Shown in pieces: positions 17,024 through 47,171 of a stretch of 60,880 bases of DNA. The translations under genes and the position numbers were made by a program. The DNA is from Nitrospiraceae bacterium (GTDB taxonomy: Bacteria; Nitrospirota; Thermodesulfovibrionia; UBA6902). The notes below the pieces were generated by a model that worked only from the letters and a program-made list of their open reading frames with translations, did no database searches and was not told where the DNA came from. The DNA lies in NCBI GenBank assembly GCA_003599425.1, contig QZKC01000052.1:1-60880 (forward strand), given 5' to 3'. Each line of letters opens with the position of its first letter. The stretch's first letter is position 1.

Positions 17024-17188
17024 CACAAAGGTAAGGCTATCTCAGGATTTCTCTAATCGACAAAAATCATTTTAAATTTTTGCTGCTGCGCAATTCTTGT
17101 CTTTGTTATTTTCTAAACTCCTAACTCCAAACTCTTAACTCGTTTTTAGCGGTGTCGTATAGAAATCTTCGCCAGCCTTACCTTTGTG
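17024..17188. repeat. Long hairpin intergenic element, copy A
   Basis: Arms CACAAAGGTAAGGCT..ATTTCTCTAATCGACA / TGTCGTATAGAAAT..AGCCTTACCTTTGTG; homologous to copies B-D. Confidence 0.85.
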
Positions 17189-17217
17189 CCAGTAGTCCTT
17201 CTTGTTATTATCATCAT

Positions 17218-18615
17218 TTATGTTTCCCCTACCGGCAACTTAACAGTAAACACAGTTCCAGCGCCTTCGTTGCTGTGAAAGAATATCTTTCCGCCATGTG
17301 ATTTCACGATATTATATACGATTGACAGCCCGAGTCCTGTGCCGTTTTCTTTTGTGGTGAAAAAAGGCTCGAAAACCTTTGAACGGATGTCAGGTGATAT
17401 TCCGCTGCCTTTGTCCCAGATCATGACCTCGACAAATCTGTCATCTGTCTTGCCTGAGATTCTTATTTCTCCTCCATCAGGCATTGCCTGCACGGCATTC
17501 AGGATCAGGTTAAGAAATACATGTTCAAGGAGCGCCCGGTCCGCCTTGATCGTTGGGAGTGTATCGATCATGTCCTGCTGAACTGTTATGCCGCTGTTCC
17601 TGATATCAAAAGAGGCGAGTGTCAGGACACGCTCTATGAGCGAGTGTATATTGGTATCCGAGGCCTGGAAGGATTTCTGTTTTATAAATCCGGTAAATCT
17701 CGTGATTATCGTATCGATCTTTTCTATTTCCCTGCTGATGATCTCGGCATCCTCTTTTGTCATATCCGGCTGATCTTTGAAGGCCTGGAAAAGCATCTTG
17801 AGGGTAGTCATGGGATTTTTCAGTTCATGTGCAAGGCCGGACGATATCTGCCCGATCGTCGAGAGCTTTTCCGCTTCAAGAAGATGAGTATAGGTATAGG
17901 CTTCCTCCATCTTCTCGCTGACTCTCTTGAGCTCCATTGAAAGCCTGTTGAAGTTGCGCGCCAGGTATCCTAGCTCATCTCCGTAAGGGACATCCACCCT
18001 TTTCCCGAATTCCCCTCTGCCGAGCACTTTAGTGAACTCTACAAATTTATTCAGGGGCTCAGTGAGGAGGCGGCTGAAAATAAATGAGACGATCACTCCC
18101 AAAAGTGTAACAAGCAATATTATCGGAACAGTTATTTTTCTTACCTCAGCGATGGTCTGCTTCAGATCGTCCTCTCTGATCCCAAGGTGAAGTTCAGCAT
18201 GTGTTCCGGCAAAAATCTTTATCCCGACATCCCTGATATACCCTTTCTCGGTGTCCAGAAGCTGGATGTTTTTAGTAATGTCATGGAGCGGATTCCATGT
18301 AAGGATATCAGGAGGGATCTCATTTTTGAATGTATGCGCAATGAGATTTCCTTCTTCATCCGTGACAAAGATATATTCCACGTCGTTTTCCTTGCCCAGA
18401 ACCTCGGTGAGGTCATTTGTTGCCTGAAAATAATCTTTCCGGATAACATGATCTGCCACCCGGTCTGAAAGATTTCCCGCAATAGAGACCGCCCTTTTTT
18501 CCAGCTCTTCCCTGAAGGCGCTGATAATTACACCTCTTATAGCGAGGAGCGTGAAAAAGACAACGCTTACCGCCATCACTGTCGTAAGGAGAGTTATCCT
18601 GGTACGCAGTTTCAT
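17218..18615 (-). CDS. HAMP-domain sensor histidine kinase
   Basis: Two TM helices, HAMP, AHELKNP H-box, [19 protein letters not shown]. Confidence 0.93.
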   Translation of the reverse strand: MKLRTRITLLTTVMAVSVVFFTLLAIRGVIISAFREELEKRAVSIAGNLSDRVADHVIRKDYFQATNDLTEVLGKENDVEYIFVTDEEGNLIAHTFKNEIPPDILTWNPLHDITKNIQLLDTEKGYIRDVGIKIFAGTHAELHLGIREDDLKQTIAEVRKITVPIILLVTLLGVIVSFIFSRLLTEPLNKFVEFTKVLGRGEFGKRVDVPYGDELGYLARNFNRLSMELKRVSEKMEEAYTYTHLLEAEKLSTIGQISSGLAHELKNPMTTLKMLFQAFKDQPDMTKEDAEIISREIEKIDTIITRFTGFIKQKSFQASDTNIHSLIERVLTLASFDIRNSGITVQQDMIDTLPTIKADRALLEHVFLNLILNAVQAMPDGGEIRISGKTDDRFVEVMIWDKGSGISPDIRSKVFEPFFTTKENGTGLGLSIVYNIVKSHGGKIFFHSNEGAGTVFTVKLPVGET

Positions 18616-19547
18616 TCTGTCAGCACCCCGTACTTTTTCGCGAGCGTTTTTACCTTGTTCAGTTCCAGTTCGTCAACCTTCGAAAACCCTAACGGCATCT
18701 CTGTCTGGTCCCAGTCAACAAGCATTGTTTTATGTTTCCCTCGAGGATCAAAAGCAAGGAGCGCGGCACGGACCGCCTCAGCGGTCTTACTGTCAACGGA
18801 ACTGCTGTAAGCGATAAGGCTTCCCGGAAATGGCTCCGATATTTTCAGTATTTTTATCTTGCCCTCTGATGCCAGTGTTTTTGCAAGGGTATCCTGAATT
18901 CCCCCTGCGTCGCACTCTCCGTTCAGGACGGTCTTTACTGTTTCGAGATGAGACCCTGTATAAATATACCTAACAAGGTCTTCAAGATGAATACCCTCGT
19001 CCTCAAGCATATTCCTTGGGATCAGATGCCCCTGTGTAGACATCCTTGAACCGAATGCAAAACATTTCCCCTTCAGGTCTTTCAGGCCCTCAATGCTGCT
19101 TCCCGGGGAAGTAAATATTATCGAATTATATGTAGTGTCTCCCTCTTTGTTCACTCCGCTTACAAGGTATCGTATCCCGTACCTGGCCTCGCCAATGAGG
19201 TAGCTGAGCGTTCCGACAGCAGCAAAGTGCGTAACACCTTTGCCAAGGTCTTCAACGGTACTTTCATATTTCTCGGCGAACTTAATGCGGAAATGCCTGC
19301 CAGTGTCTTTTTCAAGATATTGAAGAAGGGGGAGGTATATCCTAACATCTTCTTTGGGCCCGATCCTGAGGTCAAATCCGAACCAGAGGGCATCCTGGGG
19401 CGCATACTCATTTAACTCTGCTTTCTCATTGGTCTTTGTGGTCAGACTAACCTTTTTGGGTGTTTCTTTTTCTACGCAGCCTGATGATACCAGCACAAGC
19501 AGACAGATAAGAAAAGACAATATTTTCACCTTGATTGCTGCACCCAT
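18612..19547 (-). CDS. PhnD-family periplasmic binding lipoprotein coupled to the kinase
   Basis: Lipobox-like SSGC; YLPLLQYLE, DLKGKCFAFG..STQGHLIP, H..V.NGECDAG; 4-nt overlap with the kinase gene. Confidence 0.82.
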   Translation of the reverse strand: MGAAIKVKILSFLICLLVLVSSGCVEKETPKKVSLTTKTNEKAELNEYAPQDALWFGFDLRIGPKEDVRIYLPLLQYLEKDTGRHFRIKFAEKYESTVEDLGKGVTHFAAVGTLSYLIGEARYGIRYLVSGVNKEGDTTYNSIIFTSPGSSIEGLKDLKGKCFAFGSRMSTQGHLIPRNMLEDEGIHLEDLVRYIYTGSHLETVKTVLNGECDAGGIQDTLAKTLASEGKIKILKISEPFPGSLIAYSSSVDSKTAEAVRAALLAFDPRGKHKTMLVDWDQTEMPLGFSKVDELELNKVKTLAKKYGVLTE

Positions 19548-19755
19548 GAAAATTATTTTAACTTTTATAAAAAAAATTAGCCCAGACAGTTAAACTGCTT
19601 GTTCCTCTGTCATTGCGAGAACCGAAATGAAATGGTTTAGGGATGAACCTAAGCTGAACCCTTAAGTTATTTGCGGGCTTGCCCGATATAAATAAAAAAA
19701 CATATACATAACGTATGCGTTATTAGGCGAGATCCTGGCTCATCATAACAGGCCT

Positions 19756-22023
19756 ATGACAAAGGAAAAATTAATAAAAAACATCTTTCTTGTTTCTGTT
19801 GCAATCGCAATTATTTTTCCGCTGACCAATATCTATATCATTTTTCCTGCGTTCACAAAACTTCTTATAACGAACACGGAACATGAAGCTGAGCGCGTGG
19901 GCTCTCACCTTGCGAGCATGATCCTGAAACATGACCATGAGCTGACCCGCGAGAGTGTATCAGAACATTTTTCAGGCGGAAAATCCGATGTTGTTCTGAA
20001 AGATTTCCACCTCTTGAAACTGAAAATATTCTCCCCTTCAGGACAGATCATTCACTCCTCTGACCAGTCTGAGACAGGGGAAATGAACACAAACCATTAC
20101 TTTAATGAAATCGTGGCAGGGGGAAAGCCATACACAAATGTTGTGAAAAAGGGCACTCAATCCCTTGAAGGGGAAACCGTGACTGCTGATATTGTCGAAA
20201 CATATGTCCCTGTAATGCGCAATGGACAGTTCGCCGGCGCCTTTGAGATCTACTATGACATAACCGGGAGGAGCCAGATTCTTAACTCCCTGGTGTTACG
20301 TTCTTCTTTTATTCCACTTGGGATTATGATGTGTTTCCTGGTCGTCATTATCATTATCCTGTTTAAGGGCAACAAAGCTCTCGATGATGATAAAGCATAT
20401 ATTTTGCCTAAGCGGTATCTGTCGCCTTACTATTCATTTTTGCTGCTTACGGTATCGATATTTATAGCGGAAACGATCATTATGCTGCTCATTGCAGCGT
20501 TCCCTTCACTTTCCCAGTGGAACATGGCCATCCTCGATGCTGTACTGCTGGTTATCATAATTTCTCCCACAATTTATTTTTTCCTGATGAGACCCCTGCT
20601 GGCACATATTGCTGAACGCCAAAAAACTGAAGAGCGCATCAAGGAAATAGCCTTTTATGATGAAGTGACAAAATTGCCGAACCGTAATCTGTTTCAGGAC
20701 CGGCTGAAAAAAGCTATTGAACATGCCGGGCGCTACAAAAGATGCATGACGGTGATCTCTCTCGATATAGACAATTTCAAGAGGATCAATGACACCTTCG
20801 AACACAAAGTGGGGGATCTGCTCCTCAGAGAAGTGGCTGAACGGCTGAACAGGTGTGTGCGGGCCTCTGACTCCATCTCACGACCTGGTGAAGACAGCGC
20901 CGTCGGTACGGTTGCCCGCATTGGAGGCGATGAATTCATTGTGCTGCTGTCAGAGATCAGTTCTGCCCTGGACGCATCGAGGGTTGCTCAGCGTATCCTT
21001 GACGCCATTTCCAGCCCGTTTCAGCTTGCCGGACACGATATTTTCATCACAGCGAGCACAGGCATTGCGCTGTATCCTCAAAATGGTGAAGACCTTGACA
21101 GCCTTCTTAAGAATGCGGATACAGCCATGCATCATGCAAAAGATCTCGGCAGGAATAATTATCAGTTTCATGAAGATGCCATGAATGTTTTATCCCTGAA
21201 GCGCCTCACCATTGAGAATGAACTGAGAAAGGCGGTGGAACGGGACGAGTTTCTCCTTTACTATCAACCGCAGATCGATATGGTCATGGGCAGGGTGATC
21301 GGCTTTGAGGCGCTTATCAGATGGGACCATCCCGTAAAGGGACTTATTCCCCCGGGTGAGTTTATCCCTGTTGCTGAAGAAAGCGGCCTCATATCGCTGA
21401 TAGATAAGTGGGTGCTGAAAAATGTGTGCTGGCAGCTTAAACACTGGGAGGCGTCGGGCATTGACACACTCAGGGTCTCATTGAACCTTTCTGCGCAGCA
21501 GTTCATGAACAGGGATCTGCCGGATATGGTATCACGCTCGGTTGATATGTTCTCAGTTGATCCGCGCAAACTGGAATTTGAGATCACGGAGGGGGTGCTT
21601 ATGCAGAATGCCGAAATGGCCACGGGGATACTGAAGTCCCTGAAGGATATGGGCATCCGGCTGGCAATGGATGATTTCGGCACAGGGTACTCCTCCTTCA
21701 GTTATCTGAAGCGGCTGCCTCTTGACATCATCAAGATAGACCGTTCGTTCATTAATGATGTCCCCGGCGACCCTGATGATGCAGCTATAGTTACGGCCAT
21801 AATCGCGATGGCAAAAAACCTGAGACTCGATATTGTTGCCGAAGGAGTAGAAAAGATAGAGCAAAAAAAGTTTCTGGTGGAACACGGGTGCATGACTGCG
21901 CAGGGGTATCTGTTCAGTGTCCCTTTGTCTGCCGAAAAAGCTTCTTTGCTGCTTCAGGAGAATGCTGTGTTCTGGCATCATGGCCATGGATTTAAGGCAG
22001 GGTGCGGCTCAATGAGTCCGTAA
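19756..22023 (+). CDS. Membrane sensor GGDEF-EAL protein
   Basis: Periplasmic Cache-like domain, TM helices, IGGDEF, EAL, DDFGTGYSS. Confidence 0.92.
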   Translation: MTKEKLIKNIFLVSVAIAIIFPLTNIYIIFPAFTKLLITNTEHEAERVGSHLASMILKHDHELTRESVSEHFSGGKSDVVLKDFHLLKLKIFSPSGQIIHSSDQSETGEMNTNHYFNEIVAGGKPYTNVVKKGTQSLEGETVTADIVETYVPVMRNGQFAGAFEIYYDITGRSQILNSLVLRSSFIPLGIMMCFLVVIIIILFKGNKALDDDKAYILPKRYLSPYYSFLLLTVSIFIAETIIMLLIAAFPSLSQWNMAILDAVLLVIIISPTIYFFLMRPLLAHIAERQKTEERIKEIAFYDEVTKLPNRNLFQDRLKKAIEHAGRYKRCMTVISLDIDNFKRINDTFEHKVGDLLLREVAERLNRCVRASDSISRPGEDSAVGTVARIGGDEFIVLLSEISSALDASRVAQRILDAISSPFQLAGHDIFITASTGIALYPQNGEDLDSLLKNADTAMHHAKDLGRNNYQFHEDAMNVLSLKRLTIENELRKAVERDEFLLYYQPQIDMVMGRVIGFEALIRWDHPVKGLIPPGEFIPVAEESGLISLIDKWVLKNVCWQLKHWEASGIDTLRVSLNLSAQQFMNRDLPDMVSRSVDMFSVDPRKLEFEITEGVLMQNAEMATGILKSLKDMGIRLAMDDFGTGYSSFSYLKRLPLDIIKIDRSFINDVPGDPDDAAIVTAIIAMAKNLRLDIVAEGVEKIEQKKFLVEHGCMTAQGYLFSVPLSAEKASLLLQENAVFWHHGHGFKAGCGSMSP

Positions 22024-22136
22024 TATTTCACTTCCGCAGAGCACTATTTAAGAAATTTATTTTAGATACCGATAGATATACATGTAAATTGCCCTTGGAG
22101 AGGTAAAATATTTTTTCAGCAGAAAGGATTAAGTTT

Positions 22137-23567
22137 ATGCCGAAAGATAAGAACCTGAAAATCATGCTTTTCATCTCTTTAGCGATAACACTGCTCGTGC
22201 CGGCTGTCAATTATCACTTTATATATCCGTCTTTTACCAAAATGATACTTGATAATACGGAGGAGGAGGCAGAGCGCGCGGCACGTCATCTTCAGACAAT
22301 GATCATCCCTGACACCATAGACCTCAAGAGAGAATCCCTTGTGAAAGACTTGCCTGATAAAGTGGACCAGGCAAAAAAAGATCTTTCCTTCATAAAACTT
22401 AAGCTGTTTTCAAGGGAAGGAGAGATCATCTACTCAACCGATTCTAAGGATATCAGGGAAATAAATAAACATGATTATTTTCATCAAGTCGTTGCCAGGG
22501 GGGCAAAGTATACAAAAGTTGTTAAAAAGGACACCAAATCTCTCGAAGGAAAAATAGTAAAAGCGGATGTGGTAGAGACATACATCCCCATCATGAGAAA
22601 CGGAAATTTCGTCGGGGCGTTTGAGATCTATTACGACATTACCCTCAGGTACGAGAAATTGATCAGCGCTGTTTTTAACTTTTCACTCCCCCCCCTGATC
22701 ATGATGCTCGGTTTTTTTTCCTTTATCGCCATGATGATATTCAGGCTGGACAAAAACATCCTGTACCGCAAACGTGCTGAGACAGAGGCGGTGCTCTATG
22801 CTGAAAAACTTAAAAAGAGCAATCGCGAGCTGGAAGAATTTGCCTATATCGCATCACACGACCTGCAGGAACCGCTCAGAAAGATCATGTCGTTCGGAGA
22901 CCGCCTGAAAGAAAAATACTCCGGGGCGTTTGACGAAAAAGGCCTCGATTATCTTGAGCGGATGCAGAGCGCAGCATTCAGGATGCGGAACCTTATTCAG
23001 GGGCTGCTGATGTTCTCCCGCGTTACATCAAAGGCACAGCCTTTTGTCCCTGTAAACCTTTCTGCAGTTGCTCAGGAAGTTTTGTCTGATATGGAAATCC
23101 GTATCCAGGAGTCAAAGGGACGCATAGAAGTCGAGCATCTTCCGGTTGTCAATGCAGACCCGATGCAGATGCGGCAGTTGATGCAGAACCTTATCAGTAA
23201 TGCTCTGAAATTCACCAAGGAGGGAGAAGCTCCTGTTGTAAAGGTCTCCGGCGCTCCGGTAACCGGGCAGGAGAGGACGCAGGACAATGAATTGTATCAA
23301 ATCACGATTGAGGACAATGGTATCGGGTTTGATGAAAAATATGCTGACCGCATCTTCGGGATGTTCCAGAGACTGCACGGAAGGAAGGAATATGAGGGGA
23401 CCGGCATCGGACTGACCGTCTGCAAGAAGATCGTTGAACGGCATGGAGGAAGCATTGCTGCAAAGAGTGTTCCAGGAGCGGGAACAAAGTTTATCATCAC
23501 CCTTCCGGCAAAGCAGTCCGGAAATGACGGCGCAGAGGCAGCGGCGGATAAAGCCATCATATTGTGA
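22137..23567 (+). CDS. Membrane sensor histidine kinase (phytochrome-type HisKA)
   Basis: ASHDLQEPLRKI, NALKF, FQRLH, GTGIGL; sensor domain homologous to that of the upstream gene. Confidence 0.93.
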   Translation: MPKDKNLKIMLFISLAITLLVPAVNYHFIYPSFTKMILDNTEEEAERAARHLQTMIIPDTIDLKRESLVKDLPDKVDQAKKDLSFIKLKLFSREGEIIYSTDSKDIREINKHDYFHQVVARGAKYTKVVKKDTKSLEGKIVKADVVETYIPIMRNGNFVGAFEIYYDITLRYEKLISAVFNFSLPPLIMMLGFFSFIAMMIFRLDKNILYRKRAETEAVLYAEKLKKSNRELEEFAYIASHDLQEPLRKIMSFGDRLKEKYSGAFDEKGLDYLERMQSAAFRMRNLIQGLLMFSRVTSKAQPFVPVNLSAVAQEVLSDMEIRIQESKGRIEVEHLPVVNADPMQMRQLMQNLISNALKFTKEGEAPVVKVSGAPVTGQERTQDNELYQITIEDNGIGFDEKYADRIFGMFQRLHGRKEYEGTGIGLTVCKKIVERHGGSIAAKSVPGAGTKFIITLPAKQSGNDGAEAAADKAIIL

Positions 23568-23568
23568 G

Positions 23569-25356
23569 ATGAGCAGGAAAACAATAAAAATATTACTTGT
23601 CGACGACGATGAAGATGATTATATAATGACCCGGGACCTCCTTTCTGAAATTGACGGGACGACATATGATCTGCAATGGACGACAAACTTTGACGGTGCA
23701 GTCACGCTTATTGAGCAAAGAGAGCATGACGTATATCTTTTTGATTATCGTCTCGGAGAACGCACGGGACTTGAGCTTTTACGCGCAGCCATTGAAAAAG
23801 GCTGCAGGGCCCCGATCATAATATTAACGGGGCAGGGCGACAAGGAACTGGACATGCTCGCGATGAGGTCTGGTGCGGCAGATTATCTGGTGAAGGGACA
23901 GATCAATGCCCCACTGATAGAGAGGTCTATCAGATATGCGATTGAACGCAAACGGTCTGAAGAGGATATCTACCGGATGGCATATTACGATGTCCTGACC
24001 AGTCTTCCCAACCGGCTGTTGTTCAGGGATCGTTTGTCACAGGCCATGGGTCTTGCGGAGAGACATGACAGGAAGGTGGCAGTATTATTTATAGATCTCG
24101 ATAATTTCAAGCGCATTAATGATACCTTTGGCCACCATATGGGGGACCAGTTGCTGAAGAACATTGCGGAGCGTTTGAAAAACTGCATGAGAAAATGCGA
24201 TTCACTGTCACGGCAGCATCCTGATAGTGCGGTTGATACGGTTGCCCGGCTTGGCGGCGATGAGTTCACCATCCTGCTGTCGGAAATCGGGCATGGCGAG
24301 GACGCGGCCAAGGTAGCGCAGCGGATCATTGAGACCCTGGCACAGCAATTTACGCTGAATGCATATGAAATATTCATCAGCGCGAGCATCGGGATTGCCA
24401 TATATCCGCATGACGGAAATGATATTGATACCCTTTTAAAGAACGCAGATGCTGCGATGTACCATGCAAAATCGGAAGGCAAGAACAATTACCAGTATTA
24501 CAGGCAGTCCATGAATGCCTCTGCCTTTGAAAGGCTGACTATAGAGAACAAACTGCGCAAGGCAGTGGACAGGAACGAATTTGTCCTTCATTACCAGCCA
24601 CAGATCGAAGTCAGGACCGGCAAGATAGTCGGACTGGAAGCACTTATACGGTGGCAGCAGGATGACAAACTGATAGAACCCGCAGAATTCATTCCGATAG
24701 CAGAAGAGACGTGTTTGATCATTCCCATGAGTGAATGGGTGCTGCATACAGCGGCGACACAGATAAAAGCATGGCAGGCAGCTGGGTTTCACAATATCCC
24801 TGTTTCGGTCAATATTTCAAGCCAGCAGTTTCAGCATAAAAAATTTATAGGTTCATTACACGGAGTTATAAAAGATACAGGCATCAGATCCAGGGATATG
24901 ATATTGGAAATAACAGAGAGCACCATAATGCGGAATACCGACATAGTATTTCATACGCTGTATGAATTATCCAAGATAGGATTGCGGCTTTCGATCGATG
25001 ATTTCGGCACCGGGTATTCATCGCTGAGCTACCTGAAGCGTTTCCCTCTGCATGCCATAAAGATTGACCGCTCGTTCATAAAGGAGATCAGCACCAGCCC
25101 TGATGACGCGGCCATATCAAAGGCCATTATCTCCATGGCGCACAGTCTGAAGATCAGGGTTGTAGCCGAAGGAGTCGAGACAAAGCATCAGCTTGCGTTC
25201 CTGTCCGAACAGGGATGCGATGAAGCGCAAGGTTTTCTGTTCAGCCGTCCCTTGCCGGCTGAGGATATCGAGAAACTTTTAGCGATGGATAAAAATACTG
25301 AGGGCAGTATATTCCCGATCCTGCACAGGGGCTATGGTATTGTGCAGAGAAGATAA
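23569..25356 (+). CDS. REC-GGDEF-EAL response regulator
   Basis: ATG 1 nt after the kinase stop (track start 23434 overlaps the kinase); LLVDDDEDD, LGGDEF, EAL. Confidence 0.92.
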   Translation: MSRKTIKILLVDDDEDDYIMTRDLLSEIDGTTYDLQWTTNFDGAVTLIEQREHDVYLFDYRLGERTGLELLRAAIEKGCRAPIIILTGQGDKELDMLAMRSGAADYLVKGQINAPLIERSIRYAIERKRSEEDIYRMAYYDVLTSLPNRLLFRDRLSQAMGLAERHDRKVAVLFIDLDNFKRINDTFGHHMGDQLLKNIAERLKNCMRKCDSLSRQHPDSAVDTVARLGGDEFTILLSEIGHGEDAAKVAQRIIETLAQQFTLNAYEIFISASIGIAIYPHDGNDIDTLLKNADAAMYHAKSEGKNNYQYYRQSMNASAFERLTIENKLRKAVDRNEFVLHYQPQIEVRTGKIVGLEALIRWQQDDKLIEPAEFIPIAEETCLIIPMSEWVLHTAATQIKAWQAAGFHNIPVSVNISSQQFQHKKFIGSLHGVIKDTGIRSRDMILEITESTIMRNTDIVFHTLYELSKIGLRLSIDDFGTGYSSLSYLKRFPLHAIKIDRSFIKEISTSPDDAAISKAIISMAHSLKIRVVAEGVETKHQLAFLSEQGCDEAQGFLFSRPLPAEDIEKLLAMDKNTEGSIFPILHRGYGIVQRR

Positions 25357-25365
25357 AAGAAAAAA

Positions 25366-25434
25366 AGCGATCAGCGGTAAGCGGGGGAGAGTCCATTTTT
25401 TGATCTGATCGCTGAAAGTTGATAACCGACAGCT
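25366..25434. repeat. Inverted heptamer arrays (AGCNNTC type)
   Basis: AGCGATC AGCGGTA AGCGG ... CTGATCG CTGAAAG TTGATAA CCGACAG CT. Confidence 0.6.
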
Positions 25435-25513
25435 TATTGTTCTGCAGGCTGTCATTTGTGTGCGTAATAAATATTGAAAAAATTGTAAACAATTTAAAGG
25501 AAGGGGAATAACC

Positions 25514-37725: not shown

Positions 37726-37756
37726 TAAGGTCACAGTATAAAGAAAGGAGAAAATC

Positions 37757-38215: not shown

Positions 38216-38244
38216 GAGAGAAAGATAGAGCATGATCCAGAACC

Positions 38245-38274
38245 TGTAGGGGTTTGATTAATCAAACCCCTACA
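38245..38274. repeat. GTAG-type REP-like palindrome
   Basis: Perfect 30-bp palindrome TGTAGGGGTTTGATTAATCAAACCCCTACA. Confidence 0.75.
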
Positions 38275-38277
38275 ATT

Positions 38278-39031: not shown

Positions 39032-39167
39032 CGGTCTCTTGTTTTACGGGAATTATACGATATAATTTAATTGTCTGGAAAGAAAATTCCGGAAGTGTCA
39101 GTCGTTTCATTACTGACACTGACACCTTTACTTTTGAAATCTATATCTTATTGGAGCTACATTCGTC

Positions 39168-40079
39168 ATGAACAAGACACGAAAAATCTGGAAGGTTCTA
39201 AAGAGTAAACCCACCATCGAAGGTGCCGGTGTTCATTTAAGGAGGGCCTTTGGTTTCAGTGAAGTCCCCCTGTTCGACCCGTTCCTCATGCTTGATGATT
39301 TCCGTTCAGACGATCCCGAATGCTATCTCAAAGGCTTTCCCTGGCACCCTCACCGGGGCATTGAAACAATAACATATGTCCTGAACGGAAAAGTGGAGCA
39401 CGGCGACAGCATGGGGAACAAGGGAGTAATTACGCCCGGCGATGTTCAATGGATGACAGCGGGAAGCGGGATTATCCATCAGGAGATGCCAAAGGGAGAC
39501 AATGACGGCGTAATGGGAGGATTTCAGCTATGGGCAAATCTCCCCGCGTCTCACAAGATGATGGAACCCAGGTACAGAGATGTAAAAAGCGCACAGATAC
39601 CTGAGATGGAACTTGAAAATGGAGTAAGGATCAGAATCATATGCGGCAAGGTTGGCACCAAGCAAGGCCCCGTCAGGGACATTGTCATTGATCCTGAATA
39701 CCTTGACATCTCTGTCCCGCCTGGTTCAGAGTGGGCACACCCAACAAAGCGCGGGCACACGGTATTAGCATATGTGATCGAAGGCAAGGGATATTTCTGC
39801 AAAGAGAAAAACCCGTTCACCTATGAAGTCACAGGAGAGAACTATTTCGATATCCAGCGCGACCCCTTCATCGGCAATGGCACGCTTGTCCTGTTTGATG
39901 ACGGCGATGAAGTCATGGCCATGACCGAAAATGAACCGGTCAGGTTCCTGCTGATATCAGGAAAACCGATCGGCGAGCCGGTTGCGTGGTATGGACCTAT
40001 TGTCATGAACACGCAGGAAGAACTTAAACTTGCCTTTGAGGAATACCGGAACGGTACGTTTATCAGGCACAGGACGTGA
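39168..40079 (+). CDS. Pirin family protein
   Basis: DPFLMLD, HPHRGIETITY, QWMTAGSGIIHQE, GPIVMNT. Confidence 0.95.
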   Translation: MNKTRKIWKVLKSKPTIEGAGVHLRRAFGFSEVPLFDPFLMLDDFRSDDPECYLKGFPWHPHRGIETITYVLNGKVEHGDSMGNKGVITPGDVQWMTAGSGIIHQEMPKGDNDGVMGGFQLWANLPASHKMMEPRYRDVKSAQIPEMELENGVRIRIICGKVGTKQGPVRDIVIDPEYLDISVPPGSEWAHPTKRGHTVLAYVIEGKGYFCKEKNPFTYEVTGENYFDIQRDPFIGNGTLVLFDDGDEVMAMTENEPVRFLLISGKPIGEPVAWYGPIVMNTQEELKLAFEEYRNGTFIRHRT

Positions 40080-40789
40080 GGACAGACATTGTACGGGACA
40101 TAAAGGCTGCACTGAGAAAATCAGGCGATAAAAAGATCGCTGAGCATTCCCGGAGATTTTTCAAGACAGGCAAGGGCGAATATGCTGAAGGGGATAAATT
40201 TCTGGGGATAAGGGTGCCGGTGCTGCGAAAGCTGGTGAGAAAATACCGTGGGATAACGATTGATGAAGCGATGATGCTTCTCATATCAGAATTTCACGAA
40301 GAGCGGTTATTCTCCCTCTTGTCTCTTATTGAGTTATACAAAAAATCAGGAGATGATGCTCAGGGAAGTATATTCAAGCTCTATTTAAGCAGTACGGAGT
40401 ATATCAACAACTGGGACCTTATAGATCTTTCAGCGCCGCATATAGTCGGCGTTTATCTGCAACGCCGTAACAGGGCTCCGCTTTACACACTCGCAGAATC
40501 GGAAAGCCTGTGGGAGCGGAGGATCGCGATCATGGCAACATTCCATTTTATCAGGCAGAATGATTTTAGTGATGCACTGGAGATATCGCGACTTTTTTTG
40601 AAAGACAGGGAAGACCTGATACATAAGGCAACCGGCTGGATGCTGCGGGAGGTCTGGAAGAGGGACACTGAGTCTGCGGAACAGTTTCTCAGCAAGCGCT
40701 GCAGGAGCATGCCGCGCACCACGTTACGTTACGCGATAGAGAAATTACCTGAAAAGAAAAGGATCCGTTATCTGAAAGGAGAAATATAA
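40076..40789 (+). CDS. DNA alkylation repair protein (AlkD family)
   Basis: FFKTGKGEY..FLGIRVP, NNWDLID, LWERR, HKATGWMLRE, PRTTLRYAIE. Confidence 0.88.
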   Translation: MRTDIVRDIKAALRKSGDKKIAEHSRRFFKTGKGEYAEGDKFLGIRVPVLRKLVRKYRGITIDEAMMLLISEFHEERLFSLLSLIELYKKSGDDAQGSIFKLYLSSTEYINNWDLIDLSAPHIVGVYLQRRNRAPLYTLAESESLWERRIAIMATFHFIRQNDFSDALEISRLFLKDREDLIHKATGWMLREVWKRDTESAEQFLSKRCRSMPRTTLRYAIEKLPEKKRIRYLKGEI

Positions 40790-40791
40790 TT

Positions 40792-41151
40792 ATGCCAATA
40801 CTGATCAGAAGACCTGTCGTGATCGCCTCGGCAGGAAATAAGCCAAAGGAGATCAGGGAATATGTCGGACGTGTCAATACTAAGACAAGTGATGTAAGCA
40901 TTGCGCGGATGAAGAGTCCAGGCGGATGGATCGAGCCCGGGCAGCAGCCTGAGTTCGATGAGTATACCCTAATATTGCGCGGCATGCTCAGGGTCACGAC
41001 AAAGACAGAGATGATCGATGTCCATGAAGGAGAGGCGGTACTTGTACAGCAGGGCGAATGGGTGCAATACAGCACTCCGGAGCCGGATGGGGCAGAGTAT
41101 GTCGCCGTGTGTCTTCCCGCATTCTCGCCTGAGAGTGTGCACAGGGATTAA
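40792..41151 (+). CDS. Cupin domain protein
   Basis: EPGQQPEFDEYT..GEWVQYSTP..PAFSP. Confidence 0.85.
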   Translation: MPILIRRPVVIASAGNKPKEIREYVGRVNTKTSDVSIARMKSPGGWIEPGQQPEFDEYTLILRGMLRVTTKTEMIDVHEGEAVLVQQGEWVQYSTPEPDGAEYVAVCLPAFSPESVHRD

Positions 41152-41277
41152 TTCGGACTATTCGCAAGTCTGGAGCAAGTATGGGTGGCTTGCTCCAAAA
41201 TAAATTTATGAACAATCCGAATAAAGCGCATTGTGATATGCTATCCAGATGAAAGACCAGAAGGGATGTTTAGATAT

Positions 41278-41426
41278 CACAAAGGCAAGCCTGTCTCAGG
41301 ATTTCTATAATCGACAGGATTGTTTGCATTTTGTCTTTTCATTTTACAAAGGTAATCTTTCGATAAGATTCGAAGTCTTTTTTTCAAAGGTGTCGTACAG
41401 AAATCTTCGTCAGCCTCACCTTTGTG
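41278..41426. repeat. Long hairpin intergenic element, copy B
   Basis: Same arms as copy A with a diverged interior; followed by CCTTTGNN octamers. Confidence 0.8.
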
Positions 41427-41491
41427 CCTTTGCTCCTTTGTCCCTGGGTGCCTTCTATTGGAACAGAGTTCGCTATGAATAACCTGTGCTG

Positions 41492-44473
41492 CTACAATAT
41501 CACCTCGATCACCATCTTTTTATCCTTTCGCTGCACTTCTACCTTCACGCTGCCGCCGGTGGATTTATAAAGGAGATGGATCTTGACATCCTCTATGCTC
41601 TTCACGGGTTCGCCGTCAACTGACAGTATCAGATCGCCTGCCTTGATCCCGGCCTTCTCAGAGACGCTGCCTTCAGGAAACCCGGTTATCTTAAGCCCCT
41701 CTTTTTCTTCTGACAGGAAGACCATGAGCCTGGGCGACGTAATGCCTTCTACAGATTTTGGAAAGACAACATAATCGGCTATTCCCTTTTCCACCTCGGA
41801 GTCTATCAGTATGATCGCGTAGTCTTTGCCGTTACGCCTGAACGTCCTTTTAGGGATGCCTGAGCCGTATTCAAGATGCCCCCTCCCGGCGAGCGCTACG
41901 ACCTGAAAATCGGGATTTGATGAGAGGAACTTGTCTATGGAGCGCGACATTGTCTCATCCCACAATAACTGCGCCTGGTAAAAATATTCAAAGTTTTTCT
42001 TCTCGGAGTTTTTATGCTGCTCGAAAATGTTCTTCAGCCGCTCCCGGTACTCGCCGTCTGAAAAATCCATATGCAGCGGTATCTGCCCCTTTTCATCTTC
42101 AGTGAGAGAATCAATGCCTTCACGCGATACTTTTTCAATGACCTCCCGCTGCATGTTCAGGGCGATCACAGGCAGCTTCTGTTCCCGTGCAAAATCGAGT
42201 ATCGGCTTGTAAAGGTTGTAATCAAATCCCCATCTTTTGAAGTATTCCGATTCCCTGAGAAAGTCAGCCTCTTCCATAGTCCCTGCTATATACTTGTCGA
42301 GGGTCTCCTGGAACGGCCTCTGGAACATCTCCATCCCGACCGCAACCTTTTTATTCTTGCCGTATAACCCTTTGATGATGTCAAGCTGCACCGCATGATG
42401 CGCGAACACGTCATGCATCTCTCCGACATAGACTATCTTCCTGCCAGCGATGTTCTCAGTGATCTCTGACAGCTTTCTCAGTGTGGAGAGATCGACAACC
42501 GGAGCCTCTTCATGCGTATACATAATAATTCCCCTCTCTGTCTGCTCTGTTTCCTTCGCAGTATTTTTACCGTTCTCAAACAGGAGCCTGCTGTATTTGC
42601 CATAATGGGTGATCTTACCGAAAGCGGCATCAGCCTCCTCCTTTGTTTTAGCGTTTATTACCGCAATGACTTTTTGCGGGTTCAGGGGGTTTTCTTTTAC
42701 CTGCACCAGAAACCCCGCGTCGTCAGATGTGAGCTTTCCAAACAGTCTGCTGAGCACCGGGCTGTCAGCTCCAAGAACCAGCACAGAGCACGTTTGTATG
42801 TCTGAGTCCTTCAGTTCCTCTGCTGTTTTTCGGACCCCGTCCTGTTTTGCAAAGTAGTCGATGATATTTTGATACATCTCTTCATTGCCGGGGGACGCAA
42901 CAATGTATGGGCCCTTTTCTGCCAGAAGCCGCTCGATCACAGGCGGGAACTCTCTGGCGGAAAGTTCACGGGCCGTATCATAATTCTCATCAAATACTAT
43001 CTTCTCCGGCCTCTCCCGAAAGGTAAAATAGAACCTGTTCTTTTCCCTGTCAATAAGAAGCTGTTTCTCAAAAGCATTATTGTTTGCCTGCACAGTCATG
43101 GGAAGCGTGAGAGAAAAAGGTTTGCCCGTCTGGCTGACCATGAAACTGACCGCGTATTCACTGCCCTGCTGCTGTACCTGCAAGTCCTCTATCGAAATCC
43201 CTGCCAATCCCTTGTCAGCGACCCATTGTGTGAAAAACGGCATCAGGTCCTCCCGGTAATATTTCTGGAACGATTTTTTCAGGTCCTCCCATGAAGCCGC
43301 CTGAAAACGGTTTTCCCGGACAATATCGCGCAGCCCTTCAAAAAATGCCTCATCCCCCATCATCTTCCTGAGCATATGAAAGACCATCGCAGTTTTCCCG
43401 TATCCGATGACCCGTGTCGCGGGATCAAATCTCCCCTTGAAATCAATGAGCGGGAATTCATTCTCCGGCGTGATATAGCTCTGATAGTCTGTAAGTATCT
43501 GCTTTCTGTATTCCCATCCCTTATCTTTCTGTTCTTCATACCAATGGTCAGAAAGATAGGTGGTCAACCCCTCAGCCCAGTTGCCCTTTTGATGATCAAT
43601 ATATACGTGATTGCCGAACCACTGGTGCAGTATCTCGTGTCCCAGGGAAGTTTCAACTATGAACGGGAGGTTGACTATTGTCTTGCCAAGCAGCGTAAAT
43701 GTCGGGAAGGAATAACCCGTGGGAAGGAAATTTTCAACCACGGAAAATCTCCTGTAGGGGAATTTACCCGCAAACTCTTCGTAGAGCTTCAGGTATTTTT
43801 TCGTGAATTCAATATAGGTATCCGCAAGATGTGAGTCTTCTGCAAAAAAATATGCATAGATCTCTATGTCATTGTACATGCCTTTTTTGACATCATATTT
43901 GTCCGACGCCATCAGGTTCACTCCATCAAGAGGATTGGGAAAATCGAAATAAAACTCCACGGTGTCATTCAGGACAACCTTCCTGATGCTCTCTGCCTCG
44001 GATACTGCTTCATATCCTTTTGGCAGGGTTGCTTTAACTTTATAATAATAGTCTCCTCCGATATCAGGATACCATGCGTCTGTAAGTGAAATGCCTCTTG
44101 AATCAATCACATTGGATACCATATCCACGGAATGCCGGGGCAGCGGTTTGCTGTCCTTGAATGACAGGGTATAGCCAATCTCCAGGGTTCCGTCCTTATC
44201 GGGAAAGACATTCACAGTTCTTACCTTATCTTTCAGGGGGATATCTTCGCCGTTTAGTTTCATGAAATGTATCCTGAGCGCCCCCTTTCTTACCAGCATG
44301 ATTTCCTTCCATGCGGCGACCCCGATGCGGGCTGTTCCCGAAAGCTCAGATTTTTCGATATCTATTAAGACATCAAGGTCATAAGTGTTCACAGGCGAGG
44401 CATGCGGGGCCTCAGGTAGAAATAAAAGTAATATTGCCATGAGTACTATGCTTGCAAGGTATCTCTGTTTCAT
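41492..44473 (-). CDS. Exported M1 aminopeptidase - ChaN - PDZ fusion protein
   Basis: Signal peptide from MKQRYL (44473); HEILHQWFGN..EG; YGK; ChaN motifs YVGEMH, GMEMF, AQLLWDETM, AGRGH; C-terminal PDZ. Confidence 0.85.
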   Translation of the reverse strand: MKQRYLASIVLMAILLLFLPEAPHASPVNTYDLDVLIDIEKSELSGTARIGVAAWKEIMLVRKGALRIHFMKLNGEDIPLKDKVRTVNVFPDKDGTLEIGYTLSFKDSKPLPRHSVDMVSNVIDSRGISLTDAWYPDIGGDYYYKVKATLPKGYEAVSEAESIRKVVLNDTVEFYFDFPNPLDGVNLMASDKYDVKKGMYNDIEIYAYFFAEDSHLADTYIEFTKKYLKLYEEFAGKFPYRRFSVVENFLPTGYSFPTFTLLGKTIVNLPFIVETSLGHEILHQWFGNHVYIDHQKGNWAEGLTTYLSDHWYEEQKDKGWEYRKQILTDYQSYITPENEFPLIDFKGRFDPATRVIGYGKTAMVFHMLRKMMGDEAFFEGLRDIVRENRFQAASWEDLKKSFQKYYREDLMPFFTQWVADKGLAGISIEDLQVQQQGSEYAVSFMVSQTGKPFSLTLPMTVQANNNAFEKQLLIDREKNRFYFTFRERPEKIVFDENYDTARELSAREFPPVIERLLAEKGPYIVASPGNEEMYQNIIDYFAKQDGVRKTAEELKDSDIQTCSVLVLGADSPVLSRLFGKLTSDDAGFLVQVKENPLNPQKVIAVINAKTKEEADAAFGKITHYGKYSRLLFENGKNTAKETEQTERGIIMYTHEEAPVVDLSTLRKLSEITENIAGRKIVYVGEMHDVFAHHAVQLDIIKGLYGKNKKVAVGMEMFQRPFQETLDKYIAGTMEEADFLRESEYFKRWGFDYNLYKPILDFAREQKLPVIALNMQREVIEKVSREGIDSLTEDEKGQIPLHMDFSDGEYRERLKNIFEQHKNSEKKNFEYFYQAQLLWDETMSRSIDKFLSSNPDFQVVALAGRGHLEYGSGIPKRTFRRNGKDYAIILIDSEVEKGIADYVVFPKSVEGITSPRLMVFLSEEKEGLKITGFPEGSVSEKAGIKAGDLILSVDGEPVKSIEDVKIHLLYKSTGGSVKVEVQRKDKKMVIEVIL

Positions 44474-44833
44474 TTCTTTTGTTGGGCTCCTTAATATCAG
44501 ATTCACTATGAAAAACAATGTACCAACAAGTATATCAAAACAGGACACGGAGAGCTAACCTTCTACACAAAATAGTTTCAATGCAGGGAGCGGGCAGGTT
44601 TTAAAAATGCATAACTCGATATGTGGTATACAATTCTTTTCCCCTGTTTTGTTCATGAATCATTTTAATTTTTTAATAGATACGTCATTATTACTCATGG
44701 TATCGACATGCATTTTTTTAAAATCTGCCCTCTCCTTGCGCTATCAGACATAACTGTTGATACCGTCCCATTCCTTGAATAAATATTGAAGACAGGATAT
44801 ATTGAACAGTAAAAAAATACACTTGTTTAACCG

Positions 44834-45316
44834 ATGAAACAAAAAACAAAAAATTCTCTCCTGCTCGGGATCATTTCCGACACTCACGGCCTGCTGCGTC
44901 CTGAAGCTGTTCAAGTCCTGCAAGGAAGTAATATGATCATTCATGCAGGGGATATTGGCAAAGTGGAGATCATTGATCAACTGAGCACAATTGCCCCTGT
45001 TATCGCAGTAAGGGGGAATATGGACAGCGATCACTGGGCATCTAAGCTCCGGCTGACTGAGATCGTGGAACTGGATAAAACGATGCTCTACGTCATCCAT
45101 AATCTTTCATCACTTGATCTGGAACCTGCGGTTTCAAATCTTCATATTGTTGTCAGCGGGCATACACACAGGCCTTCCATAAGCACACATAAGGGGGTGC
45201 TCTACATCAATCCCGGAAGCGCTGGGCCAAAGCGGTTCACCCTCCCGGTGTCAGTTGCCCTGCTCAGGATCAACAGGACATCGCTGGACCCAAAAATTGT
45301 GGAACTGACCCGATGA
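44834..45316 (+). CDS. Metallophosphoesterase, YfcE/Vps29 family
   Basis: SDTHG, HAGD, RGNMD, GHTH, NPGS. Confidence 0.92.
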   Translation: MKQKTKNSLLLGIISDTHGLLRPEAVQVLQGSNMIIHAGDIGKVEIIDQLSTIAPVIAVRGNMDSDHWASKLRLTEIVELDKTMLYVIHNLSSLDLEPAVSNLHIVVSGHTHRPSISTHKGVLYINPGSAGPKRFTLPVSVALLRINRTSLDPKIVELTR

Positions 45317-45344
45317 TACATTCTGATTCCGTCCCAATTCAAGG

Positions 45345-45500
45345 CACAAAGGGAAATCTGCGGAGGAATTTCTGTACGACACCTCTAAAAACGAGTCAGG
45401 AGTTTAGAGTTTGGAAAATAATAAAAACAAAACAGCGCAAAGAAAAATGTAAAATGTCTTGTGTCGATTAGAGAAATTCCGGAGCAGGCTTCCCTTTTTT
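45345..45500. repeat. Long hairpin intergenic element, copy C (reverse of A/B)
   Basis: AATTTCTGTACGACAC ... GTGTCGATTAGAGAAATT; abuts the transposase inverted repeat. Confidence 0.85.
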
Positions 45501-46307
45501 AGGGACACTTTTTTAGGGACACATCCCATATTTTCACATATCATTATGCTTTCTTGGTCTTCCCCGAGGCAACGGGAACATTCTCCTCTGAAATTTATTT
45601 TCCATTTCTCCGACAAACTGCTCCTTACCAAGCGGCCTGCCTGTTCTCGTGAAATATCTTATTTCGTTCATTTCATCTTCAGGAATACTTGTCCGAACAA
45701 ATTCTGCATAATCCTTCCCTTGCTTTTCGTCAAATAATGGTTCGCCTATAATTTCATCTTTCGTCCCATTCAGGTGAGCACACGCGCTCGAATAAGGAAA
45801 TTCATCAACCATCCTTACAATCTTTGCCCTCACAGGATTCTGTTCAATGTACCTTGCCACTGCCCACAGATATTTCTCGTTATCAACTATGCATGAATGA
45901 TATCTGCTTTCCCATAGTCTGCCAGTGCGCTTGTATTTTCTGTTTACATATTGTGTATAACATAGCGTGATCCCCTGCATCATTTTGCAAAGTGATTTTT
46001 CTTCATGAGGCTTGACCAGCAAATGTACATGATTGGTCATTAAACAATAGACCAGTATCTGTGATTTCCATTTTTCGGAATATTTCTTCAGCAAAAACAG
46101 ATATTTTTCTTTATCCCTCTTATCGAAAAAAACTTGTTCCTTATTGTTCCCTCTTTGAACAACATGATGCGGATATCCCTCTGCTACTGCCCGCGCAATT
46201 CTCGGCATTGTGTCCCCTTAATTTGTTGGATGAAATGAATCTGAGTCCCACGCGGAAATTATTCTACTGAATGAAGTTTTTGTTTGTCAAAAATGGGATG
46301 TGTCCCT
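45501..46307 (-). mobile_element. Y1 transposase element bounded by inverted repeats
   Basis: AGGGACACATCCCATATTTT (45515-45534, with partial duplicate at 45501) and AAAATGGGATGTGTCCCT (46290-46307). Confidence 0.7.
45534..46208 (-). CDS. IS200-like Y1/HUH transposase, RAYT-type
   Basis: MPRIAR..HHVVQRGNN, YCLMTNHVHLL (HUH), LWESRY, YIEQNPVRA, PYSS, C-terminal RGRPRK. Confidence 0.9.
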   Translation of the reverse strand: MPRIARAVAEGYPHHVVQRGNNKEQVFFDKRDKEKYLFLLKKYSEKWKSQILVYCLMTNHVHLLVKPHEEKSLCKMMQGITLCYTQYVNRKYKRTGRLWESRYHSCIVDNEKYLWAVARYIEQNPVRAKIVRMVDEFPYSSACAHLNGTKDEIIGEPLFDEKQGKDYAEFVRTSIPEDEMNEIRYFTRTGRPLGKEQFVGEMENKFQRRMFPLPRGRPRKHNDM

Positions 46308-46346
46308 CTTTTTCAATTCCTGCTCCTTTCAGTGTATGATAGAACC

Positions 46347-46976
46347 ATGAACTTTAAGATCGATCTGCATGTACATACAAAATTCAGCGGAGACAATTAT
46401 ACGGAACCCGAAGAAACCGTTATAAACGCCATTCAGAGGAACCTGCAGGGGATCGTTTTTACTGAACACTACTCATATGAAGCATCAGAACACGCGGAGT
46501 CGTTGAAAGAAAAATATAGAAATGAGATCATGATCTTCCGTGGAGTTGAGTTTTCAGCGGCAGAAGGTCACTGCCTTATCTTTGGAGTCAATACAGACAA
46601 GCTGTCCATGTCTCACGCGCCGATTGAGGATATTGTCAGGATCGTCAGTGAATCCGGCGGGATTGTCATCCCTTCCCATCCGTTCCGTGGAGGGACCGGC
46701 ATAGGCAGTATTGTCGAAAAGATAAAAGGCTTCACTGCCATTGAAGGCTATAACGGTTACAGCCATCATTCCCAGAACATGAAGGCCATAGAGGCTGCAA
46801 AAATATTGAACCTCCCTTTTACCGGAGGTTCTGACGCTCATGAGCCCGGGGAGGTCGGAGCCTGTTATACCGAGTGTTATGAAGAGGTGACCATCGATAA
46901 CTTCCTCACTGTGTTGAAGGCAGGTAATTATCAGGGAGTGGATACCAGAAAAGTAAGCAAAGCCTGGGTGTTTTAA
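46347..46976 (+). CDS. PHP-domain metal-dependent phosphoesterase
   Basis: DLHVHT, TEH, GVE, SHPFR, GGSDAH. Confidence 0.88.
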   Translation: MNFKIDLHVHTKFSGDNYTEPEETVINAIQRNLQGIVFTEHYSYEASEHAESLKEKYRNEIMIFRGVEFSAAEGHCLIFGVNTDKLSMSHAPIEDIVRIVSESGGIVIPSHPFRGGTGIGSIVEKIKGFTAIEGYNGYSHHSQNMKAIEAAKILNLPFTGGSDAHEPGEVGACYTECYEEVTIDNFLTVLKAGNYQGVDTRKVSKAWVF

Positions 46977-47008
46977 AAACCGGTTGCAAAGGGACAAAGT
47001 GGCAAAGG

Positions 47009-47171
47009 CACAAAGGGTAGTTTGCGAAGGAATTTCTGTACGACACCGTTAAAAGCGAGCTATGAGTTTGGAGTTATTGGTTCAGAAAAAGATAAAATGA
47101 AACAGCGCAAAGAAAAAATTCAAAATGTCTTGTGTCGATTAGAGAAATTCTGCAGTAAACTGACCTTTGTG
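47009..47171. repeat. Long hairpin intergenic element, copy D (same orientation as C)
   Basis: CACAAAGGGTAGTTTGCGAAGGAATTTCTGTACGACAC ... GTGTCGATTAGAGAAATTCTGCAGTAAACTGACCTTTGTG. Confidence 0.85.

Follow-up and report, generated by a model that had tools for sequence, protein, structure and literature searches.

A 60,880-nt stretch of DNA, hereafter the window, from the draft genome of a Nitrospiraceae bacterium (GenBank assembly GCA_003599425.1, contig QZKC01000052.1, positions 1 to 60,880) carries four copies, A to D, of a repeat that folds into a long hairpin, here called the hairpin element, and a Y1 transposase gene lies next to copy C. The source genome (G000) comprises 2.9 Mb in 106 contigs at 45.8% G+C and 89.6% completeness, and the window is its contig C5. 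Related genomes also carry G numbers, G001 to G010 being the other species of the genus that were searched and G027 belonging to another family of the same order; C and L numbers denote contigs of G000 and loci. All four copies lie where they were originally predicted, A and B being the reverse complement of C and D. Also as predicted, C and D are direct repeats around the Y1 gene and a PHP-domain gene, with the end of C 15 nt from the inverted repeat of the Y1 unit. The hairpin features of the window are as follows.

17024 to 17188, plus strand: hairpin core of copy A, flanked by the genes for a histidine kinase and a sigma-54 response regulator; immediately upstream is a partial left module (about 16996-17023), and there is no right module.
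41278 to 41426, plus strand: hairpin core of copy B, between two convergent gene ends; 173.3 bits with covariance model R1.
41427 to 41485, plus strand: right module of copy B, with three tandem 8-nt units TTTGCTCC, TTTGTCCC and TGGGTGCC, then TTCTATTGGAACAGAGTTCGCT, then ATG at 41475-41477.
45310 to 45344, minus strand: right module of copy C in diverged form, identified by comparing it by eye with the family consensus.
45345 to 45500, minus strand: hairpin core of copy C, without a left module; its left arm opens with AAAAAA, not CACAAA, at the junction with the Y1 unit.
46990 to 47008, minus strand: tandem 8-nt units beside the right arm of copy D.
47009 to 47171, minus strand: hairpin core of copy D, 25 nt upstream of the start of a DUF2064 gene and antisense to that gene.

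The four window copies are homologous, with a mean column identity of 77%, and a profile built from them was used to search the G000 contigs with nhmmer. The search returned 243 raw matches, which reduced to 149 non-overlapping ones; 125 of these had E<1e-3, 116 had E<1e-5 and 78 were full length. This result overturned the earlier description of a four-copy element. The core matches total 16.6 kb, or 0.57% of the genome. A contig end lay within 300 nt in 29 of the 125 matches at E<1e-3, which indicates that the repeat breaks the G000 assembly.

The anatomy of the arms was determined in 71 full-length G000 copies anchored on two core motifs. In these copies, the left arm and the reverse complement of the right arm share one pattern, which consists of CACAAAGG-N-AAG-N-CTG, a loop segment of 6-9 nt and TTTCTATA-(AT)-CGACA, the extra AT being present in the left arm only. 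The core, about 165 bp long, begins with an outer stem of 16 bp that contains one conserved mismatch. Next comes an internal loop of about 4 columns, then the inner stem of 13 bp (ATTTCTATA[AT]CGACA paired with TGTCGTATAGAAAT, with a 2-nt bulge), and finally a variable loop of 73-113 nt, in which at least three subfamilies are visible. The previously proposed limits of 150-165 bp proved too narrow for the genus, where many copies extend into a left and a right module. The left module is an AT-rich segment of about 55 nt with TATG / YTATTAATCATCAAAGATCTTAAAAAATATTTAAGATGTTTAGATAT and a small hairpin of its own; the right module has 0-4 tandem 8-mers of the form TTTGYNCC followed by TTCCATTGGAACAGAGTTCGCT-ATG. 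Eighteen complete two-module units measured 222-264 bp, and the unit in the genus is about 220-265 bp long. Derivatives that had lost most or all of the core retained both modules; therefore, the left module, core and right module form one unit.

The TTTGYNCC units of the right module (41427-41452 and 46990-47008 in the window) vary from 0 to 4 in G000, form much longer arrays in G003 (locus L093) and are absent from most other species. They look like a microsatellite expansion of the last 8 bases of the right arm itself. A coding reading of the element, suggested by an open frame seen by eye in one subfamily, was rejected, as the frame is broken by the variable count of 8-nt units. A sigma-54 promoter reading of TGGAAC-N-TTCGCT in the right module, also made by eye, was set aside, as the ATG immediately after it is used as a start codon. 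A scan for consensus promoters and terminators across copy B found no site of either kind. A second repeat family of about 120 bp, with inverted ends of the GTCATTCCCGC...GCGGGAATGAC type, was found at about 6990-7140 of C53 (inside locus L062), nested within one copy of the hairpin element; it occurs elsewhere in G000 (C101:7224-7342 and C62:10362-10483) and in G007 and G005.

As the original prediction had proposed, each window copy forms a long, imperfect hairpin. Compared with mononucleotide shuffles, the folding energies had z-scores of -2.5 to -6.1, whichever strand was folded and whether DNA or RNA parameters were used. Covariation within G000 was measured in 69 of the 71 anchored copies, two with poor anchors being left out. 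Sixteen outer-stem columns paired with their own partner far above partner shuffles, with z up to 7.7, and two columns showed four pair types. Single copies carried unique variants that were matched in both arms, such as CACAATGG, CATACAGTG and TACAAGAGAAAG.

Covariation between species was measured with a covariance model built from 14 copies on a hand-drawn structure of 37 pairs. The resulting alignment, A4, holds 73 copies from 10 species, 13 of them from G000 and 60 from nine other species of the genus, these 60 being the ones among the matches listed and not every copy in those genomes. In A4, 85.6% of cells were paired, compared with 78.7 +/- 0.4% for shuffled partners, a level that none of 500 shuffles reached. 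Both sides had changed in 21 of the 37 pairs, and there were 190 doubly changed cells as against 65 in shuffles. The covariation score was 0.170, compared with 0.065 for shuffled partners and 0.036-0.056 when the partner was slid by 1-3 columns. The co-variation of the arms claimed from the four window copies was thus borne out both within G000 and across species.

Individual outer-stem pairs flipped among lineages (GC30/CG29, AU38/CG19, GC34/UA33 and UA31/CG17/GC6 in A4). The outer stem reads CACAAAGGGAAG / CTTCCCTTTGTG in G000 and G003, CAGACATGGAAG / CTTCCATGTCTG in G005, G001, G008, G009 and G006, and CTGAAATGGAAG / CTTCCATTTCAG in G004 and G007; in G027 it reads AGAGGTAGGGAAAG paired with its complement. 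No pair of the 13-bp inner stem had changed on both sides in the 73 copies of A4. The 2-nt bulge, described earlier as conserved, was AT in 64 of these copies, AA in 7 and AC in 2. The unpaired position reported beside it is not a conserved feature: 64 of 73 copies have an A-T pair there and 8 leave the position unpaired (columns 45-208), and the window copies represent the minority. The truly conserved mismatches lie elsewhere: 55 of 73 copies leave one outer-stem position unpaired, and 48-67 of 73 are unpaired at the four columns of the internal loop. At gathering score, Rfam 15 gave no match in the whole window, and across copy B there was just one chance-level match (E 0.53). The view that the structure is under constraint is upheld by strong compensatory change within G000 and between species, together with the near constancy of the bulged inner stem, and a protein that reads the folded strand is a reasonable idea.

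The element profile had matches in all 10 of the other species searched within the genus, and beyond it in one genus from a different family of the order. The exact core-to-core pattern was present in 4 of 401 genomes sampled from the phylum (15 times in G000, 11 in G005, and twice each in G009 and G027). The copies in G027 consist of the hairpin alone, without modules. Among the matches listed, element candidates numbered 131 in G000, 142 in G003, 90 in G008, 75 in G005, 43 in G006, 41 in G010 and 37 in G009, and 41, 28, 27 and 22 in the four others; these counts are minimum, first-look numbers from related genomes and not copy numbers, and within that limit they lie several-fold apart between species (22 to 142). 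The covariance model upheld the predicted covariation and the profile placed the element in related genomes; the count of four copies did not survive. Public sequencing runs included one DNA run with a small share of the element's words and listed no RNA run. No published description of the element was found in the literature covered, which comprised Nitrospirae with miniature inverted-repeat transposable elements (MITEs; this returned nothing), REPINs and PATEs.

Filled and empty versions of the same site were compared at four positions. G000 has copy A at its site; the site is empty in G005, G010 and G002, in which the kinase and regulator genes abut or overlap. On C8, the copy upstream of a nucleotidyl-transferase gene was missing in six relatives. 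On C10, the stop codon of a mini-open reading frame (mini-ORF) at the right end of the element overlaps the stop of a convergent gene, and this right-end segment was lacking in the six relatives examined. On C53, the site at LarC was empty in seven relatives; G010 and G005 have ATGATCGC... directly after the upstream stop and the five others start likewise, while in G000 the element is present and ATGAATAAG is fused in frame ahead of the native ATGATCGC of LarC. Such comparisons had been suggested as a test for target-site duplications; they yielded empty sites for copy A, on C8 and on C53, a missing right-end segment on C10 and, between the two junctions, only a shared ATG/TATG.

Nearest-neighbour identity among G000 copies had a median of 84.9% and a maximum of 94.6%, and it reached at least 90% in 15 of 72 copies; the genes flanking the compared copies were 66-81% identical between species. 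Because copies are closer to each other than their flanking genes are between species, the family multiplied after these species split. TATG is present on the left flank and at the right end, and the bases farther out do not match copy by copy. The hairpin arms are inverted repeats of 37-40 nt and form the ends of the unit in G027; in the genus, the conserved unit extends past the arms and has no terminal inverted repeats.

In the genus, the unit ends on the right in a ribosome-binding site and an ATG, and some of these ends start genes. A 20-nt right-end motif, allowing up to 5 mismatches, matched 91 times in G000 (25 times for a reversed-motif control), with a start codon at the end of 74 matches. 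Forty-four of these 74 follow a core of the same strand at a distance of no more than 150 nt, and among the 44 the ATG opens an ORF of exactly 5 codons in 20 (MNNLD or MNNPG then stop, and similar) and one of at least 100 aa in 10. The terminal ATG is the start codon of at least 10 real genes in G000. Across the genus, the same right module is found with a mini-ORF of fixed length and varying residues, and real genes begin at it in those species as well. The element extended LarC by three codons. At the nucleotidyl-transferase gene, relatives free of the element already begin with ATGAAC or ATGAAT, and the ATG is either native or the junction lies within shared bases.

Collectively, these data suggest that the copies form one family of non-autonomous, MITE/REPIN-like interspersed repeats with a constrained, bulged hairpin core, mobilised by a protein encoded elsewhere, a reading to which we assign a probability of roughly 0.6. 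It rests on the observed number and distribution of the copies, the covariation of their arms, the comparison of filled with empty sites, gene starts at the terminal ATG and the absence of any link to the Y1 gene. In such a scheme, the element would spread, or would once have spread, as mobile DNA with the help of a protein that reads the invariant bulged inner stem on the folded single strand. The outer stem would need only to pair, and so could drift by compensatory change or be kept matched by mismatch correction inside the hairpin. The host may tolerate copies and sometimes use them, the right end restoring a ribosome-binding site and start codon such that the terminal ATG would open a five-codon mini-ORF or start the downstream gene. 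The neighbouring Y1 transposase would be a different mobile unit that landed beside copy C.

Several findings weigh against mobilisation of this kind. No pair of copies in G000 is more than 94.6% identical, and current activity therefore lacks support. No target-site duplication was found, as four orthologous-site comparisons, junction listings and an all-against-all extension gave only shared ATG/TATG. Constant unit ends were not found either, the right boundary being at the ATG in gene-fused copies and 18 nt later in mini-ORF copies. A parent insertion sequence (IS) with these arms was not found in G000, nor did any pair of solo arms 0.5-3 kb apart flank a gene in this 89.6% complete genome. 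Family searches of G000 for a transposase partner gave no rve, IS110 or TnpB-type match and one borderline match to DDE_Tnp_1 (23 bits). Relatedness among the A4 copies, and the fitting of their alignment to the model, mean that both the shuffled and the slid-partner controls overstate the signal. Covariation between lineages would also be expected if both arms bound one co-evolving protein as duplex DNA, an alternative that is weakened because the arms are not the ends of the conserved unit in this genus. Finally, G-T wobble in the stem columns favours the reverse-complement strand, antisense to the ATG (62 versus 26), while the copies tend to follow the direction of the flanking genes.

This orientation bears on the most durable of the rival explanations, in which the element acts as RNA, either a structured leader at the 5' end or a hairpin between genes (an RNase III or stability site, for example), joined to a translation-initiation module and selected for its effect on expression, with mobility secondary. 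In G000, 44 copies are co-directional with both flanking genes and 22 opposite, while 13 lie between convergent and 9 between divergent genes (crude ORF calls of our own; 28 contig-edge copies excluded). Together with this excess, the strong covariation, the conservation across the genus of a ribosome-binding site, ATG and fixed 5-codon mini-ORF, and the use of the terminal ATG by at least 10 real genes are what an RNA element would explain. However, among copies whose two neighbours run in one direction, a third are antisense to them, others sit between convergent gene ends, no Rfam family was matched, and the wobble pairs favour the strand that would not carry the ATG. The genes downstream of the terminal ATGs are functionally unrelated, and the copies in G027 lack the initiation module. 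The bias itself matches the strand bias of the genes relative to GC skew: copies agree with the local skew sign 56:28 and genes 1446:675 (68%), the same proportion, so that an effect of replication is inseparable from one of transcription. We consider selection as an RNA element unlikely.

A bolder form of the mobile-repeat reading is that the bulged inner stem, kept across two families of one order while its surroundings change, is a recombinase recognition site on the folded strand. The recombinase would not be the neighbouring Y1 enzyme; it could be an integron integrase acting on dispersed sites without R boxes, or an unrecognised protein. The family would then be a new class of hairpin-mobilised DNA that in this genus also acts as a portable ribosome-binding site and start codon, having rewritten the translation starts of at least 10 genes per genome. 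We regard this as an improbable extension of the mobile-repeat reading.

Since integron integrases act on folded attC hairpins with extrahelical bases, the integron integrase of G000 was tested as a candidate partner. This gene (C1:102070-103416, minus strand, 448 codons) is intact and matches TIGR02249 at 442 bits against a cut-off of 265. By eye, the protein contains what we take to be the IntI-specific insertion, and its N-terminal part is duplicated. The gene lies 456 nt from a contig end, and any cassette array at this locus is therefore unassembled. Strong integrase matches were found in 26 of 41 related genomes, many at contig ends, and within the genus in G000 and 6 of the 10 other genomes.

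The hairpins could then be attC-like, folded-strand substrates of this integrase that were scattered to secondary sites. The architecture is parallel, in that a basal stem is followed by an unpaired spacer and then by a second stem, which bears extrahelical bases and ends in a variable terminal loop. Moreover, among the matches listed the genus genomes with IntI show more candidates (131, 142, 90, 75, 43, 41 and 37) than those without (41, 28, 27 and 22), although these are the first-look numbers described above and not copy numbers. The base of the stem, however, varies by lineage (CACAAAGG, CAGACATGG, CTGAAATGG or ATAGAGGTAGGG) and lacks the R'' and R' boxes of attC sites (RYYYAAC / GTTRRRY). 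G001, G002, G004 and G007 all match the element and gave no IntI match. No element was found at 14 intI loci, 7 of them in the genus (50.6 kb, with flanks of 456 nt in G000 and about 1.5 kb elsewhere, beyond which a first attC could lie), and a scan for the canonical attC pattern near intI found a site in one genome only, outside the genus. The copies sit beside housekeeping genes and are not arranged in arrays: neighbours less than 2 kb apart formed 12 pairs, compared with 10.3 expected, and 7 of the 12 had the same orientation. An attC-like origin is thus very doubtful.

The other enzyme considered was the Y1 transposase next to copy C. The features between and beside copies C and D are as follows.

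45516 to 46306, minus strand: IS200-like / RAYT-like unit, separate from the hairpin element, with the Y1 gene (45534-46208, 224 aa) between inverted 12-mers.
46347 to 46976, plus strand: PHP-domain gene, not part of the repeat element.

The 12-mers read GGGACACATCCC at 45516-45527 and GGGATGTGTCCC at 46295-46306 on the plus strand; along the strand of the gene, GGGACACATCCC precedes the gene and GGGATGTGTCCC follows it. All 16 Y1 relatives listed have the upstream motif, with one or two base changes in a few, and behind it a TTGACA about 65 nt ahead of the ATG; the downstream motif was visible in 13 of them; these relatives come from Nitrospirota, Planctomycetota and deltaproteobacterial metagenome-assembled genomes (MAGs), among others. 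Of 11 further related Y1 loci, 8 had both motifs and 3 had one. Elsewhere in G000, the 12-mers form gene-less mini-pairs of 47-64 nt (C6:12323-12369, C15:22073-22136 and C48:1708-1771), and there is a solo copy at C76:12624. The mini-pairs look like a REPIN-like miniature family belonging to the Y1 enzyme of the window.

At the end of the Y1 unit in the window, GTGTCCCTAAAAAA occurs twice (45494-45527), the partial copy being about 14 nt long (about 45494-45515). A partial tandem duplication of 9-17 nt, taking in some of the inverted repeat, often lies just past the downstream end of the unit, as at L006, L003, L009 and C15:22125-22160 of G000. This duplication may be a footprint of Y1-unit insertion, because it recurs at relatives in other phyla. 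The left module is missing from copy C, whose opening bases are altered where it meets the Y1 unit, and this suggests that the Y1 unit arrived beside or into a pre-existing copy C. Core matches fill about 5.6% of the sequence left non-coding by crude ORF calls in G000, which gives a landing unit a probability of about 9%, roughly one in ten, of coming within 40 bp of a copy.

The distribution of the Y1 gene does not follow that of the element. Of the 10 other genus genomes, 2 gave an orthologue of at least 77% identity and G006 a partial match at 60%, compared with 10 of 10 for the element. The two orthologues (G004 and G007) lie in other neighbourhoods, without the hairpin element and without the PHP gene. 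A longer Y1 paralogue (C25:19903-20870 in G000, 33% identical to the window protein over 208 aa) is present in 1-5 copies in every genus genome searched, and was never adjacent to the element. No element was found at any of 22 Y1 loci of the genus, short and long forms together, with about 2 kb of flank (94.7 kb), or at any of 23 Y1 loci of other taxa. Co-occurrence of the element with this Y1 clade, as the original prediction would have it, is therefore contradicted.

The PHP gene gave no support for a mobile cassette between C and D. Its ORF had been called mechanically from a TTG at 46284, which overlaps the Y1 inverted repeat, but the gene probably starts at the ATG at 46347 (MNFKIDLHVHT...). 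In none of the 23 plus 11 related Y1 loci was a PHP gene syntenic with Y1. With 12 pairs seen and 10.3 expected, pairing of copies at the distance of C and D is as common as chance, and the notion of a C-D cassette is unsupported.

The remaining rival, that the hairpin is a single-stranded DNA substrate of the adjacent Y1 enzyme and that C and D mark a mobilised REPIN-RAYT unit, draws on the position of C 15 nt from the Y1 inverted repeat and of D in the next intergenic region, on a Pfam Y1_Tnp protein whose best NCBIfam match is REP_Tyr_transpos (72.7 bits, under the curated cut-off of 80), and on the compensatory changes common in REPIN hairpins in the consulted part of their description (PMC3116915); with the Y1 gene's own conserved inverted repeats and mini-pairs, its presence in 2 of 10 genomes, the element's absence from all 22 and 23 loci and a roughly one-in-ten chance of such adjacency all against it, this rival is largely refuted by distribution and is the least probable explanation considered. 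The Y1 gene is a different mobile unit, and its adjacency to copy C looks like coincidence. Thus, the structural part of the original prediction holds, and the link that it drew to the neighbouring transposase fails.

The mobile-repeat reading sets the element closest to two known kinds, REPINs and MITEs of the Correia/ERIC type, and the element fails the REPIN-RAYT tests of adjacency and co-occurrence as well as the attC site tests. According to the part of the REPIN description consulted (Bertels and Rainey 2011, PMC3116915), REPINs share with the element an extragenic location, about 100 or more copies, two inverted arms that form a long hairpin, compensatory changes and persistence within related species. 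The element is longer, at about 165 bp or up to about 265 bp with modules, than the 71-nt spacing given there for group I REPINs of Pseudomonas. Nor are its arms short REP (repetitive extragenic palindromic) palindromes; by eye, a 4-bp mini-palindrome (CCTG-TCT-CAGG) is present in the left arm of one subfamily only. Unlike in REPIN-RAYT systems, the Y1 gene is flanked by the element only by chance, in the window, and the presence of the short Y1 form does not track it.

Correia elements of Neisseria and ERIC/IRU elements of enterobacteria are repeats of 100-170 bp that lie between genes and have long, imperfect inverted arms; they are often transcribed together with the adjacent genes and can affect them. 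The element is likewise an intergenic repeat with long imperfect inverted arms, but its arm termini vary with pairing kept, its internal bulged stem is invariant, it has an added module of ribosome-binding site and ATG, and no target-site duplication was found. It also differs from a classical MITE derived from a DDE-type IS, in that no full-length parent IS with the same ends was found in G000. Integron attC sites resemble it in their folded imperfect hairpin, unpaired spacer, extrahelical bases and variable terminal loop, and an integrase is encoded in the genome; the element differs in its stem base, in lying outside cassette arrays, in not being found next to intI and in its presence in four genus genomes without an IntI match. 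With IS200/IS605 elements and the miniature PATEs, it shares a full unit without terminal inverted repeats or evident target duplication, subterminal hairpins near both ends and, for IS200/IS605, the TATG on the left flank and at the right end; the Y1 unit of the window is of this general kind. In contrast to these, the two subterminal hairpins of the element are unlike each other, its right end often lies 18 nt past the TATG, and it has no Y1 association. The traits that set it apart are the invariant bulged inner stem across two families of one order, the freely co-varying outer stem and the translation-start module in one genus.

In this uncultured lineage, the element offers a clean natural case of repeated DNA whose hairpin is preserved through compensatory change, with a constrained inner stem that can be separated from a free outer stem. 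The Y1 unit, with ends of its own, is a caution that adjacency to a transposase gene can mislead. The repeat fragments MAG assemblies, as the 29 of 125 matches at contig ends illustrate, and for the annotation of gene starts in these genomes it matters that several genes owe their ribosome-binding site and start codon to the repeat. If the partner enzyme is found, the family would add a folded-DNA recognition system.

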